Assembly (NCBI GenBank): GCA_965367725.1
Contig: CBDUKE010000002.1
Location: forward strand, 7,091-71,090
Origin: an uncultured Maribacter sp.
GTDB taxonomy: Bacteria > Bacteroidota > Bacteroidia > Flavobacteriales > Flavobacteriaceae
Length of the DNA stretch: 64,000 nt
Direction of reading: 5' to 3'
The position numbers and the translations under genes are program-made. The notes under the pieces were generated by a model that searched no databases, had not been told where the DNA came from, and saw only the letters and a program-made list of their open reading frames with translations. Below, one piece after another: positions 23,352 through 29,536 of the stretch. Each line of letters begins with the position of its first letter. Position 1 is the first letter of the stretch.

Positions 23352-26300
23352 TTATTCCAGACTTGAAGGTGTAATGGTAAAACTGTAAGCGTATGGTTTG
23401 GGCGAAATCGTATAGGCTTCGTGTACCAAACGCCCCCAAGAGGTATCGCCACCTACACCCATTTGTTGCAAATCGATATTCCATTGTACGGTTTGACCAA
23501 TTTTAATTTCAGCCCCATGTTTAGAAGTAACGGGTACCAGGCCAGAAGCTGACTTAACCGCTTCACTAGTATTAAAATCAATCTCTGTCATGGTAAAGGG
23601 CCATGTACTGGCATTCAACAATTGTTCTGATGATACCTTAAGTGCCATGGCAGTGGACGAAACTTCCATCCATCGCACATCTGTTTTATTCCCGGTTTCC
23701 TGCGGTCTTGGATAACGATGGAATTGGTCGTTGATCTTACCCGTATACAAACCCGTTTTCACGCCGGTTTTTCTATCCCAGTAACTTTCTTCAGGCCCCT
23801 TGCCATACCAAGAAACTTCTTTGTACTCATTGGCTAAAGTAAGGTACATACCCAAACGAGGTATATTAGGTAAATCTTCTTTCATTGGCAGAAATTCGTA
23901 CGCCACAGCTAATTGGCCGTTGGGTTGAAGTGAATACCTAACCAATACTTTGGCTTCATGACCAGGAAGGTCATAACGTACCTGATAAGTAACCTTATTT
24001 TCAATAGTAATGGGTTTACTTACCAAAGAGGCCTGGTAGTTATACGAAGCATCTTGCCATATTTTGGCCCATTTATCCATGCCATTACCCAAATCGTTAT
24101 CGGTTGGTGGGCGCCAAAAATTAGGGCAAATGGGTTGTGTTGTAATCTGCTTGCCGCTATGTGACCATGACACAATTTCCCCCGACTTAGCGTCAATTTT
24201 CAGGTTTACATTTTTGTTTACTATTTCAATTTCCAATGCTGAAGATTTAATTTTCAAACTTTCGCCACCCTGAACTGGTTCAGCTATTTTTTGAACATCC
24301 CTGTTCAGTACAAATTGGTCCCAGGCTACTTCATGTCCCTTGGGAATCATAGTTGTAGCTTCCTTTTGAATTAAACTTACCTCAAGAATATATTCATTGT
24401 TGGCTTTGAAAACAGTTGGAATCTTATCAAAATATGCATTTAAGGATTGCCTGGGTTGTACATTCAAACTGGGATTTGTCTGTTGTGCTATTTCTTTACC
24501 ATTCTTCAATATCTTAACTCTTATTTCCTTGTCTGAAAGATCTGAGAAGAAGTTTTTGTTCTCAATCACAACTACGCCATTTAAGTCATACTTGAACTGT
24601 ACTGGTTCATAAACTTTTTTCACTTCAGATAAATGTGGATGCGGATTTCGGTATGGGTCGACCAAGCCGTTATTGAGGAAATTCCCATCTGTAGGTAAAT
24701 CAGGATGAAAGTCCTGTCCGTAGGCCAAATATGGTAACCCTTCATCATTCTTATACTCCAAACTTTGATCTACCCAATCCCAAATAAAACCACCTTGTAG
24801 ATTGGGATATTTTTCGATGATATCCCAATAATCCTGAAGATTTCCTACTGAATTACCCATGGCATGGGCATATTCAATCATTATTGATGGTTTGTCTGAG
24901 TCCGATTTTCCATGTTCGATCAAGAATTCCGGTTTTGGGTACATAGGGCAGTATAGATCGGTGTAATCTTCCTTTCCTGCAGGTTCATATTGAACGATTC
25001 TATTATCATCGGCCTCTTTAAGCCATTTATAGGTCGCTTTGAAAATTTCACCTTCACCAGCCTCATTTCCCAAGGACCACGAATAAATACTGGGATGGTT
25101 TCTATCCCGGTAAAACATACGTTGTGTACGGGATAAATGGGCTTTGTACCAAGAAAGCTCATTGCCAATCTGTGTTTCTTTATCAATGGCCAGTGGATGG
25201 CTCTCAATATTGGCCTCATCAACAACATAGAGTCCGTAGGTATCGCAAAGTTCCAGCCAATAGGGGTCGTTTGGATAGTGTGAACTTCGAACCGCATTGA
25301 TGTTGTTCTGTTTCATTAACGCAATATCCCTTTCCATAGACTCCTTGGAGACTACGTGCCCTGTGTATGGGTCAGTTTCATGCCTATCCACTCCTTTGAT
25401 GTAAATGGCTTTACCGTTGATCAGTACTTGGCTATTCTTTATCTCGACCTTTTTGAATCCGACTTTCCTGTTTAGATATTGATTGTTTTTTGGGTTGCTT
25501 TCGTCTTCCAAGGATATCTTCAAAGTATATAGGTTAGGTTGTTCTGCCGACCATTGTTTTACCTCTTTTACGATATCATTAAAAACGATATCGATTATTG
25601 AATCTTTTGGGAGTTCAATCGTTTTTTCAGTGGTGAAGACAGATTTATTCCCATCCAACATTTCTAAGGCAACAATTCTGGAGGCAACATCATTTGTCGT
25701 GTTTTTTAAGGATATGGTTCCTCTGAATATCCCATTGGAATACGTATCATCCAAATTAGTGTAGGCATGATAGTCCGATATAAAAGCCTTTGGTTGGGAA
25801 TAGAGGTAAACATCACGCTCTATCCCACTCATGCGCAGCATATCCTGACTCTCTAGGTAGCTGGCATCACTCCATCGAAACATTTGCAGGGCAAAAACAT
25901 TTGTACCTTCTTTTAAAAATGGGGTGATGTTGAATTCTGTCGGCGTTTTGCTTCCTTGTGAATAGCCCACATAGTTTCCATTCACATATAAATATAAGGC
26001 TGACTTAGCGCCTGCAAAATGAATGATAACATCTTCTAAAAGAAATTCTTTGTTCAATTTTATTTCCCTGCGATAAGTGCCAACGGGATTATAATCTTCG
26101 GGCGCTTGAGGCCATTTGGTATCAAAAGGATATCGTTCATCCAAATAAATAGGGTAGTCATAACCCGCTACCTCCCAATTGGCAGGAACTGGAATGGTAC
26201 CCCAATCAGAGTCATCAAAATTTACATTTTGAAAAGTGGTCGGCCGTTTTTTTGGGTCTTTAACAAAATGGAATTTCCACTCGCCATTAAGGCTTAAAAA

Positions 26301-26492
26301 GCGTTCTGATTCTTCTTTATTCAAGATTTCCGGGGATTCAAAACTAAAATAGGTAGCTCTTGGAGGTAATTTATTCTCTTCGAATATTTGATGGTTATAG
26401 TGGTTTTCTTGCTTTGCAACAGAGCGTAGGGGTTTATCTTTGCAATGGAATAAAAGCAATGATGCTATAACTATAAAAAGTATTTTTTTCAT
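23352..26492 (-). CDS. lacZ: GH2 beta-galactosidase (LacZ-type), lipoprotein signal
   Basis: 1046 aa. Acid/base region [10 protein letters not shown] and nucleophile region [13 protein letters not shown]. The length indicates a C-terminal Bgal_small_N-type domain. N-terminus [17 protein letters not shown]. Confidence 0.9.
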
Positions 26493-26506: not shown

Positions 26507-29500
26507 TTAGGATTTCATGAAATCCTCATGAAGAATCTTCTTTAGGTAGTAAATCAACTCTTTGGCATTTTCTATGGTAAAAACTAAAGGCGGTTTTATT
26601 TTTAAGACGTTATGGTCAGGACCATCTATACTCATTAAAATGCCGTGGTCCTTCATTCGATTGGCCAAATAATCTGTTTGTGCTCCAAGCGGAATCAGTT
26701 CGTTATCCACCAATTCCATTCCCAAAAATAGTCCTTGACCGCGGACATCCCCAATGATTGGAAATTTGATAGCAAGTTTATGTAATTCGGACTTTAAGAA
26801 TTCACCCACTTCGTATGCATTTTCCTGTAGTTTTTCTTGTTTGACGACCCGTAACACTTCCGTTCCGATAGCGCAGGAAACGGGATTGCCACCAAATGTG
26901 TTGAAATACTCCATACCATTCGCAAACTTTTCAGCTACCTCTTGTGTACAGGCTACGGCCGCCAAAGGATGTCCGTTACCTAGGGGCTTGCCAATTGTTA
27001 CAATATCGGGCACCACATTGTGTAATTGAAAACCCCAAAATGTTTTACCCATTCTGCCACAACCTACTTGCACCTCGTCAGAAATGCATAATCCACCAGC
27101 TTTTCTTATGTACTGATAAGTCTGCTCCAAGAAACCTTGAGGTAGTTCAATTTGACCACCACAACTAATGATTGGCTCTATAATAAAAGCACCGACTCCA
27201 CGGCCTTTTTCATGTATCACCTCAACCTGTTTTTGTACTTCTTCAGCATACATTGGTCCAGTATTATTTCCTCTGTATTTACCTCTAAATGCATCAGGTA
27301 AAGGAAAAATATGCGTGTGTTCTGGAGCTCCTTCTCCACCTTTGCCATCGAATTTATAGGAGCTAATGTCTATGCACATGTTGGTATTGCCATGATAGCC
27401 CATCTCAGACGCAATGATATCCCGTTCTCCGGTTGCTGCCTTCACCATTCGTATGGCCAATTCATTGGCTTCACTACCTGAATTGACAAAATGCAATACG
27501 CTCAACTCATCAGGGAGGGTTTCCAATATTTCTTTCGTTAATGCATTGATGTTCTCGTGTAAATAGCGTGAGTTTGTATTGATCAGGGCCATTTGTGATT
27601 GGCCGGCTTTTACGACCCTTGGATGTTCATGACCTACGTGGGCAACATTGTTGACCGTGTCCAAATAACTACGGCCAAATTGATCGATTAGATACTGACC
27701 ACTGCCACGAACCATTTTTATAGGTACTTTATATTGTAAGCTGAGACTTTTGCCCAAATGCTTTTTACGATAGGCAATTAGTTCTTCATTGGTTAAGACC
27801 GTTTTAGAATCAAGCTCCTTGGATTTGAATAACATATTAGGGTCGGGGCAAATACTTTTCCAAACGTTGATTTGTTTGAAATAGGCTACACCAGGGTAAT
27901 CTACTGTATAATCTAGCATTGAAAGCATAACCTGAAAGTGTAGGTGAGGGGCCCAATTGCCATTTTCAGGATAATTGCCCAAACTGCCAATTTGGTCACC
28001 GGCTTTTAATTTATCCCCTATATTATGTTTTGTGGCGCTGGCAACTGATAAATGCCCGTATAAAGTATAGAATTCAACATCTTTGAAATTGTGTTTTAAG
28101 ACGACCAAACCGCCATACTCCTTATCACCTTCATCATTGACCGCAATTACAACTTCGCTTGCGAACATCGTATGAACAGGAGTTTCAGCAGGTAGCCAAT
28201 AATCAATACCCAAATGTATCGTTCGCTTTTCCCTGCCACTATTGCCAATTTTATCATAGGCAGATGAAGTATAAAGTGGTCTTGGTTCCATATATCCACC
28301 GGCTATAATTTTTGTGGGATGTTTTTTCTGAAGTTTCTCAATCTTAAATTGAAATAGATCCAAGTCATTGAATTCGCTTTGATGCCCAATCCATGGACTT
28401 GAAACACTTAAATCCAACGCAAACACTCCGTCTGATTTTACGGTCGGGAATAATTGCTCTAAACTAAAACTGTTATTTGCCATCCAATCGTTGAACTTGT
28501 CTGCTTTGGGATGGGCCTTAAAACCACAGGCATCACGAAAGTTGAAACAAGCAAAATCAGGACTAATTTTTCGCCACTTTTTGAGGACTTCCCAAGCCGC
28601 TTTATCACTGATCAACAAATATTCATTATCAGGTTCCTTGACTTTGTTCAATGCCGATTTTGTAACCGAAATGATCAATCGCATGGCAATGGCTGTGTAT
28701 AAATGTTGTAATTCCAATTCCATTAACGGGAAGCTATCATGATACCCACTAACTAAAGGCAATGCTGCCTGTAAGGGGTCATTGTGATGCATGATGGCAT
28801 AGGCACAGGCAATGGCCACATCATTGATTATTTGGGTGTGTACGGCATCGCCATAATCAATGGCTGCTTTAACTATGGGACCAACTAATTCATCAGAAAC
28901 AATGACATTGTTATCATTGGCATCATTATGGACTACTGATTTTCTAAGTTGGCTATAGGGTTTATATGCTGCTTCAAACTTGTTCTGAAAGTATGCGATG
29001 ATTTCTTTTTTATCACCTTCAAATAAATCCAAATGTTTTTTGGTCCATAGTGATTGGGCAATATCCCACTGAAAATCACGACTAGCCATCGGGTGTTCAA
29101 ACCCCATCAAAGAGGCGGTTAATTTTCCACATTGCGCTCCTAAGCTAGTTCGTAAACTATCTAATTGTGGGTTGACCGAGCTCCATATTCTACCCGAAAT
29201 CCAGCTGAGTAATCGAACTTTGCGTGAGTTCCCTAAATCATCAATATATTCAGAAATACTTTTGCCATTAACGTCCAAGTTAACCTTGGGTGCAATAATA
29301 TCGATTTGCTTGGCTTCAATATGTTGAAGCAGTTTTTGTTGAAAGTCAAGATAGGCTTCATTCTCGTTGGGCCGCGAAACCTTTAAAATGTAACCCTCGC
29401 CATTTTCAATTTTTAATCTAAAGTTAAAATCCAATTCTCCAGGCAATACAGATGCTTTTCCTTTGATATTGAAAAGTTTCAGTGCCAATTTCTCAGCTTC

Positions 29501-29536
29501 ATCCGGGGTTACTTTTATTGCGGGATAATCAATCAT
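26507..29536 (-). CDS. Tri-domain fusion: APH-like small-molecule kinase + M23 metallopeptidase domain + class III aminotransferase-fold PLP enzyme
   Basis: aa ~20-330: kinase loop [12 protein letters not shown] and IDYGDA. aa ~410-545: M23 zinc motifs HLGID and APHLHFQV. aa ~585-1009: class III motifs [24 protein letters not shown] and [15 protein letters not shown]. No signal peptide. The stop lies 14 nt before the lacZ start. Confidence 0.8.

Follow-up and report, generated by a model that had tools for sequence, protein, structure and literature searches.

A kinase-M23-phospho-lyase fusion and its neighbouring LacZ-type beta-galactosidase as a possible core of flavobacterial loci for glycosylated hydroxylysine

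In mammals, a kinase of the aminoglycoside phosphotransferase (APH) fold, HYKK (AGPHD1), is paired with the class-III-fold pyridoxal phosphate (PLP) lyases PHYKPL (AGXT2L2) and ETNPPL (AGXT2L1). Bacterial bi- and trifunctional fusions of a kinase with an AGXT2L-type enzyme reportedly gave Veiga-da-Cunha et al., in 2012, the clue to the vertebrate hydroxylysine kinase and the two phospho-lyases. Two later papers cite that HYKK/PHYKPL work as a discovery made through gene fusions and comparative genomics. Here we describe a fusion of this kind in 64,000 nucleotides from an uncultured Maribacter sp. (assembly GCA_965367725.1, contig CBDUKE010000002.1, positions 7,091 to 71,090), a stretch that we call the window throughout. 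The protein joins an APH-type kinase, an M23 metallopeptidase domain and a class-III PLP domain, and its gene is followed on the same strand by one for a LacZ-type beta-galactosidase. On balance, gene order and homology lean towards this pair being the conserved core of a flavobacterial locus that uses the glycosylated hydroxylysine of collagen-type proteins. The chemistry we propose is that of the mammalian pair, in which a hydroxyl group next to an amine is phosphorylated and phosphate and ammonia are then eliminated. Unlike in mammals, the activities in the window share one polypeptide with the M23 domain between them, and the gene belongs to an operon with exported glycosidases.

No animal protein is more abundant than collagen, whose glucosyl-galactosyl-hydroxylysine (Glc-Gal-Hyl) units resist ordinary proteases and glycosidases. 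The disaccharide unit is linked as Glc-alpha1,2-Gal-beta-O-Hyl, and the only glucosidase known to act on it is the animal enzyme PGGHG, of glycoside hydrolase (GH) family 65; a 2024 review of collagen glycosylation names this animal glucosidase alone and mentions no galactosidase. The loci described below supply candidates for the missing bacterial steps of Glc-Gal-Hyl breakdown, among them a first beta-galactosidase step.

The three-domain fusion itself is not new. Pfam recognises all three domains in the window's protein (Table 1), as the earlier note on this DNA had claimed from the translation, and every motif quoted there is present. The protein also matches the NCBIfam profile PRK06148 from end to end, with residues 6-1004 aligned to profile positions 8-1010 of 1015 and a score above the cutoff (1142.9 against 1128 bits). 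PRK06148 and PRK06149 comprise proteins of ~1000 aa that are named only 'hypothetical protein' or, generically, 'aminotransferase class III-fold PLP-dependent enzyme', and we found no link of the family to glycosidases or collagen in the sources searched. Proteins of this architecture form more than 100 clusters at 50% identity, with members 35-48% identical to the window's protein, and orthologs across Flavobacteriaceae share 72-92% identity; one of them, from Tenacibaculum, carries the name 'hydroxylysine kinase' as an NCBI/UniRef annotation. We found no signal peptide in the fusion, which is predicted to be cytoplasmic. An AlphaFold2 model built from 84 diverse sequences is a single compact body (pLDDT 93.9, pTM 0.91); a model from 21 close orthologs was poor (pLDDT 57.8) and was discarded. 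In a Foldseek search, no PDB entry spanned more than ~40% of the protein.

Both ends of the fusion carry the residues expected of a kinase and a phospho-lyase. The kinase domain encodes the motifs HNDANDNN (203-210) and IDYGD (226-230), giving K52, a catalytic loop H203-N210 and the predicted metal-binding residues D227 and D230; these match the description of the HYKK family, an APH/protein-kinase-like fold with an HxDxxxxN loop and a metal-binding Asp. In an alignment of 150 diverse representatives of the fusion family, D205, N210 and D227 are each kept in 149. Besides PRK06148 and PRK06149, the only NCBIfam relative of this domain is the APH-fold homoserine kinase thrB_alt, a weak match (E 5e-11), and no choline/ethanolamine kinase family was reported among its profile matches. 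The PLP domain carries DEVQ (820-823) and GKPLGNG (849-855), with the predicted Schiff-base lysine K850 kept in 142 of the same 150 sequences, D820, the aspartate expected to contact the pyridine nitrogen, in 145 and Q823 in 143. Its best structural matches are phospho-lyases: human ETNPPL (6TOR; 454 bits, 51% identity over 418 residues) and the Arthrobacter phospholyase A1RDF1 (5G4I; 309 bits, 40% identity), compared with at most ~173 bits for any aminotransferase, racemase or decarboxylase, including dialkylglycine decarboxylase. Foldseek agrees, placing the model at TM 0.94 and rmsd 1.3 A to 6TOR and at TM 0.93 to 5G4I, a ranking dominated by the PLP domain that says nothing about the kinase. 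By sequence, then, the PLP domain groups with the class-III phospho-lyases and is not a generic aminotransferase or a member of an unrelated substrate family. Very probably, the fusion combines a kinase with a phospho-lyase and acts on a vicinal amino alcohol. The kinase/phospho-lyase reading had been offered in the earlier note; it is well supported by these comparisons and is not new, since it underlay the 2012 discovery of the mammalian enzymes.

The M23 domain between them is less easily placed. It shares the HxxxD, H and HxH motifs of LytM/lysostaphin-type M23 enzymes, and the two-histidine and HxxxD motifs align with those of LytM itself (E 7e-8). The motifs HLGID (441-445), GH (494-495) and HLH (531-533) supply all five predicted zinc and catalytic residues, H441, D445, H495, H531 and H533, in agreement with the earlier note that the site is retained. 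Among 139 diverse kinase-PLP proteins, 125 have an M23 domain; all five residues are kept in 103 of those 125, at overall identities of 35-48%, and are invariant in 21 flavobacterial orthologs, a pattern that suggests selection on the metal site. Collagen hydroxylysine occupies the Y position of Gly-X-Y and thus always precedes glycine, and lysostaphin-type M23 peptidases cut at glycine; speculatively, the domain may trim a Hyl-Gly or Gly-X bond and so free hydroxylysine next to the kinase. Known M23 enzymes, however, are secreted cell-wall hydrolases or their regulators, whereas here the domain lies within a metabolic enzyme of the cytoplasm. It is conceivable, though we give it somewhat less than an even chance, that the domain is not a working peptidase at all and serves a bifunctional kinase-lyase as an insert for structure or oligomerisation, or as a module that binds a ligand. 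About 9 of the 139 proteins lack it and are two-domain proteins of ~790 aa, and ~20 of the 125 domain-bearing members have degenerate motifs with at least one metal ligand lost. M23 domains without catalytic activity are known to act as regulators, the NCBIfam matches include the amidase activator ActS, and the compactness of the modelled fusion is consistent with a structural part. Such a role accounts poorly for five residues that have stayed intact across most of the family and in every flavobacterial ortholog compared.

The beta-galactosidase gene starts 14 nt after the fusion's stop codon, as the earlier note had stated. This short spacer indicates that the two genes are co-transcribed, and the promoter of the two-gene operon presumably lies in the intergenic region upstream of the fusion (Table 1). 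No terminator-like site was found in the 14-nt gap and no promoter in the upstream region by a sigma-70 scan; both scans yielded fewer sites than shuffled sequence and are uninformative for Bacteroidota. The LacZ product contains all five expected Pfam domains (Glyco_hydro_2_N, Glyco_hydro_2, Glyco_hydro_2_C, LacZ_4 and Bgal_small_N), passes the cutoff of the NCBIfam equivalog beta_gal_Bga2A (1025 against 999 bits) and carries the motifs GNEAG and EYAHAMGN with the acid/base and nucleophile glutamates. Its N-terminus is a lipoprotein-type signal. The earlier note had entered as a caveat that LacZ has such a signal and the fusion has none; this is indeed so, and an exported glycosidase with a non-exported catabolic enzyme is what a polysaccharide utilisation locus (PUL) predicts. 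We propose that this LacZ acts as a beta-galactosidase on Gal-Hyl or its (glyco)peptides.

Table 1. Genes, domains and intergenic stretches of the fusion/LacZ pair, in window coordinates
Feature	Position	Strand	Details
Trifunctional fusion gene (APH kinase / M23 / class-III PLP)	26507..29536	-	1009 aa; open reading frame and translation
Kinase domain core, residues 30-257	28766..29449	-	Pfam APH, E 2e-18
M23 (LytM/lysostaphin-type) metallopeptidase domain, residues 440-537	27926..28219	-	Pfam Peptidase_M23, E 1e-14
Class-III PLP domain, phospho-lyase subgroup, residues 604-1002	26531..27727	-	Pfam Aminotran_3, E 2e-77
Spacer, fusion stop codon to LacZ start codon	26493..26506	-	14 nt; sequence
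LacZ-type GH2 beta-galactosidase gene	23352..26492	-	1046 aa; open reading frame and translation
Upstream intergenic region of fusion gene	29537..29667	-	131 nt; shared with the divergent Crp/FNR-type regulator gene
Divergent Crp/FNR-type regulator gene	29668-30342	+	Pfam cNMP_binding and HTH_Crp_2

The pairing of fusion and GH2 is conserved well beyond the window. We assembled 82 Flavobacteriaceae loci (80 genome loci and two more), located the window's neighbours in them by tblastn and clustered all open reading frames. In 46 of them, the gene immediately after the fusion, in the same orientation, encodes a LacZ ortholog (63-88% identity), with a median gap of 10 nt (n=46), and three further contigs end inside the GH2 gene. 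About 17 genera show this arrangement, namely Maribacter, Winogradskyella, Pontimicrobium, Flaviramulus, Hwangdonia, Tenacibaculum, Lutibacter, Bizionia, Flagellimonas, Gelidibacter, Jejuia, Gelatiniphilus, Dokdonia, Eudoraea, Arenibacter and Lacinutrix, and in Polaribacter the GH2 follows with one gene intervening. The adjacency is thus not unique to the window's genome. Lipoprotein-type N-termini were seen in 52 of 55 GH2 proteins, and the fusion never had a clear signal. In seven loci (L024, L025, L027, L049, L050, L052 and L072) we also observed a second GH2 gene upstream, in the order GH63 > GH2 > fusion > GH2; three of the seven have one extra gene in the upstream stretch, and in two of the seven a GH27 alpha-galactosidase gene separates the upstream GH2 from the fusion.

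On the other side of the fusion, many relatives encode a second glycosidase. A GH63, YgjK-like gene is directly upstream on the same strand in 38 of the 82 loci, with a median gap of 0 nt, and 29 loci have both GH63 at -1 and GH2 at +1. The GH63 product is a 673-aa protein with a lipoprotein-type N-terminus (43 of 48 copies) and the Pfam domains MGH1-like_GH, YgjK_N and Glyco_hydro_63; its best PDB match, over the full length, is E. coli YgjK (~252 bits), and it matches the NCBIfam alpha-glucosidase PRK10137 at 365 bits. Crystals of YgjK have been obtained with Glc-alpha1,2-Gal, whose linkage is the one that PGGHG cleaves in collagen. According to a 2026 preprint, structure 3W7W contains this disaccharide and D501 and E727 are the catalytic pair of YgjK; the aligned residues, both carboxylates, are conserved in the GH63 neighbour. 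Compared with PGGHG, the relatives' enzyme belongs to GH63 and not GH65, is a lipoprotein in a PUL-like locus, and has no counterpart gene in the window.

The remaining neighbours point to uptake of glycopeptides and breakdown of their parts. SusD and SusC are encoded in 29 and 28 of the 82 loci, and either a pair of extracytoplasmic function (ECF) sigma factor and FecR anti-sigma factor or a tetratricopeptide repeat (TPR)-LuxR regulator recurs; as in the PULs of Bacteroidota, these genes precede GH63-fusion-GH2, the glycosidases are lipoproteins and the catabolic fusion is cytoplasmic. Whereas a PUL serves the use of a polysaccharide, the substrate proposed here is a glycosylated amino acid or a glycopeptide, and the window's copy is without SusC/SusD. 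For galactose use, an SSF symporter is present in 12 loci, and the Leloir enzymes are represented by galactokinase (GalK) in 12, GalT in 10 and aldose epimerase (GalM) in six. The Pro_racemase family occurs in 17 loci, often in two copies, with OCD/mu-crystallin in 11, DAO in 14, DHDPS in five and aldehyde dehydrogenase (Aldedh) in eight; together, these five families make up the bacterial pathways for trans-4- and trans-3-hydroxyproline. Peptidases recur as well, with M24 prolidase / aminopeptidase P genes in 12 and nine loci, S37/S28 peptidases in eight and S9 DPP-IV in five, and in five loci the fusion stands beside hydroxyproline and peptidase genes with no glycosidase nearby. All these neighbours fit one model, in which glycopeptides are taken up and stripped of sugar at the envelope and galactose, hydroxyproline and hydroxylysine are catabolised in the cytoplasm. 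The suggestion made in the earlier note, that the operon could degrade glycosylated hydroxylysine peptides, draws support from the conserved GH2 adjacency and from the GH63, hydroxyproline, Leloir, SusC/SusD and peptidase genes.

We can therefore sketch a pathway, with each step conditional on homology. Collagen-type glycopeptides would be taken up, by SusC/SusD where relatives own them, and the YgjK-like GH63 lipoprotein of those relatives would first remove the alpha-1,2-linked glucose. Outside the cytoplasm, the GH2 lipoprotein would strip the beta-galactose from the 5-hydroxyl of hydroxylysine, which would then enter the cytoplasm, either free or in a short peptide from which the M23 domain might release it. 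By analogy with HYKK, the kinase domain would phosphorylate the 5-hydroxyl, and the PLP domain, by analogy with PHYKPL, would eliminate phosphate and ammonia to yield 2-aminoadipate semialdehyde.

A related gene theme occurs outside Flavobacteriaceae. A tblastn search of plasmids found fusions of ~40% identity in many alphaproteobacteria. In Sinorhizobium meliloti, on pSymB, and in Ensifer adhaerens, the order is LacI, a polar-amino-acid ABC transporter, a short-chain dehydrogenase/reductase and the fusion, followed by a sugar ABC transporter, an MGH1/GH63-like hydrolase, LacI and a GH42 beta-galactosidase. This rhizobial locus would repeat the three functions with a non-homologous beta-galactosidase, which lends modest independent support to our reading. 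Taken furthest, Flavobacteriaceae and, independently, Sinorhizobium/Ensifer would each possess a dedicated, hitherto undescribed pathway that completely consumes the Hyl-linked Glc-alpha1,2-Gal-beta units of collagen, with GH63 in the role of PGGHG, a first beta-galactosidase for Gal-O-Hyl, and a trifunctional cytoplasmic enzyme whose M23 domain, recruited from cell-wall-type zinc peptidases, frees hydroxylysine from Hyl-Gly peptides and passes it to the fused kinase and phospho-lyase. We put this fuller proposal forward only tentatively and consider it less likely than not to hold.

We also came across paralogs side by side in one S. meliloti strain. In Ak57 (CP090106.1, locus L091), two adjacent fusions of ~1000 aa each, at 12001-15015 and 16244-19120, are of the PRK06148 and PRK06149 types, the second only 30% identical to the window's protein. 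This tandem arrangement suggests that the family has split into several substrate specificities.

A number of observations weigh against a role in the use of glycosylated hydroxylysine. The window encodes only the enzymatic core, fusion plus LacZ: tblastn searches of its 64 kb with representatives from the related loci returned no homolog of GH63, SusC/SusD, Pro_racemase, SSF or GalK (for SusC/SusD, no match at E <= 1e-3). Its organism may either use Gal-Hyl only or encode the remaining parts elsewhere. The equivalog that LacZ matches is a general LacZ-type one, and 26 of the 82 loci have neither glycosidase near the fusion. Among solved homologs of the PLP domain, only a phosphoethanolamine lyase has a named substrate, and because no PHYKPL structure is among the PDB matches of this domain, hydroxylysine cannot be separated by sequence from ethanolamine or other amino alcohols; searching the PDB with the kinase sequence returned no solved relative. 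We know of no precedent for an M23 peptidase working in the cytoplasm. In the rhizobia, the GH63-like protein shares just 25% identity with its flavobacterial counterpart, and its gene could belong to a neighbouring operon. Finally, the fusion is found in unrelated contexts, mostly of amino-acid transport, in Rhizobium BG4 and in Paracoccus, Shinella, Ruegeria, Phyllobacterium, S. fredii NGR234, Melioribacteraceae, Desulfotignum and Flammeovirgaceae, and the paralog pair of S. meliloti Ak57 likewise adjoins an Lrp/AsnC regulator and an amino-acid binding protein. A glycosidase link for the fusion family as a whole was rejected, as it fails in the eight taxa listed from Paracoccus to Flammeovirgaceae. 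Because of these unrelated contexts, the family as a whole is not tied to glycosides; it is likely to act on free amino alcohols or hydroxy-amino acids, perhaps with several amino-alcohol substrates among its members, and the glycoside link is lineage-specific.

These points give some room to other readings of the flavobacterial locus. The fusion might be an ethanolamine or small amino-alcohol kinase joined to a phosphoethanolamine phospho-lyase, serving the salvage of phospholipid head groups or nitrogen, and the glycosidases an ordinary galactoside/lactose module with which it shares no substrate. The nearest solved structures fit this account, the human phosphoethanolamine lyase being followed by a bacterial phosphoethanolamine-active phospholyase, as do the generic class of LacZ and the absence of a neighbouring glycosidase in many members from other phyla and in the 26 flavobacterial loci. 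We nevertheless regard it as unlikely. It leaves unexplained why GH63 and GH2 bracket the fusion on a single strand, at median distances of 0 and 10 nt, in ~17 genera with differing outer flanks, and why five loci tie it to hydroxyproline genes where no glycosidase is present. The S. meliloti/Ensifer copy, which has the polar-amino-acid ABC transporter, the GH63-like hydrolase and the non-homologous GH42 beta-galactosidase as neighbours, argues in the same direction, and the kinase's relatives are APH and, weakly, homoserine kinase, with no choline/ethanolamine kinase family reported.

We consider it equally improbable that the locus targets some other Glc/Gal-decorated amino alcohol or hydroxy-amino compound, such as a glycosylated sphingoid base, an aminopolyol or an algal or bacterial glycoconjugate, whose aglycone the fusion would degrade. 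The PULs of marine Flavobacteriaceae mostly target algal glycans, the GH63/MGH1-like group also acts on small aglycones (with matches to glucosylglycerate hydrolase and mannosylglycerate-hydrolase-like families), and collagen degradation is not known from the rhizobia that share the gene theme. The hydroxylysine model also does not account for the GNAT acetyltransferases that recur beside the fusion. Against this alternative stand the hydroxyproline catabolism genes and proline-specific peptidases that recur in fusion loci and the likeness of the GH63 neighbour to YgjK, which binds Glc-alpha1,2-Gal; moreover, we know of no other natural Glc-alpha1,2-Gal-beta-O-amino-alcohol. As for the fusion/GH2 adjacency being mere inherited synteny, we reject it because the Crp/FNR-type gene and a class-V aminotransferase gene that flank the pair in the window are kept only in the nearest Maribacter genomes, while GH63-fusion-GH2 persists amid different flanks.

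The GNAT genes are small and occur in several positions. Examples from related loci are L012 (9481-9990), L018 (13037-13510) and L096 (9441-9992); one type lies between GH63 and the fusion in four flavobacterial loci, another just downstream in 14, and in a Melioribacteraceae genome a GNAT gene is 8 nt upstream of the fusion. Gal-Hyl becomes susceptible to beta-galactosidase only after acetylation of its amino group, and N-acetylation might for this reason be part of the pathway. A very different context was observed in a Flammeovirgaceae metagenome-assembled genome (locus L098, 8999-16525), where the fusion is followed by a cytochrome P450, a second class-III aminotransferase-domain protein of 780 aa, a haem-oxygenase-like protein, a fatty-acid desaturase and a sulfotransferase, which looks like a biosynthetic cluster.

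The window's source is a Maribacter-like member of the Flavobacteriaceae, with the best homologs coming from Maribacter. Convergent with LacZ, with the stop codons 9 nt apart, is the class-V aminotransferase gene mentioned above (500 aa, 21840-23342, + strand); it is probably not part of the system, because its conservation is limited to the nearest Maribacter genomes. A 227-aa open reading frame at 20898-21581 (- strand) has no Pfam match and shares 86-90% identity with its counterparts in Maribacter relatives, and a PorP/SprF gene of the type IX secretion system also lies near the fusion/LacZ pair. Adjoining the pair at 30770-38701 is a sulfur-oxidation-like cluster, syntenic in close Maribacter relatives, that encodes a rhodanese, a cytochrome c/Tll0287-like protein, an alpha-type carbonic anhydrase, a fatty-acid hydroxylase, a sulfite-oxidase-like molybdoenzyme and a Pyr_redox_2 flavoprotein; the syntenic Maribacter loci also have DsrE and DsrC. 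Further along, a resistance-nodulation-division (RND) efflux set (OEP, an HlyD-type adaptor and an AcrB-type pump; 45504-51349) is followed by a 1046-aa ResB/CcsA-type cytochrome c assembly fusion (51994-55134), and both look ordinary.

The protein family and the kinase-lyase logic are thus already known, and what we found no description of are the GH63-fusion-GH2 locus and the intact M23 domain inside a cytoplasmic catabolic enzyme. Searchable literature, whose coverage is incomplete and whose silence is weak evidence, yielded no account of a conserved GH63-fusion-GH2 operon in collagen-related PUL-like loci, none of such an M23 domain, and, among work on bacterial Glc-Gal-Hyl, GH63 or collagen PULs, none matching the fusion locus. 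A bacterial route for sugar-bearing collagen hydroxylysine is apparently undescribed. If our reading of the locus is true, a bacterial gene set for Glc-Gal-Hyl would fill a gap in the recycling of carbon and nitrogen from animal matrix, in the sea and in soil, and would provide candidate enzymes to analyse or remove collagen sugars. It may also bear on the fish-pathogenic Tenacibaculum, which carries the full locus. For the large PRK06148 family of ~1000-aa proteins, it would supply a function, and with it the first metabolic, cytoplasmic role of an M23 peptidase domain.

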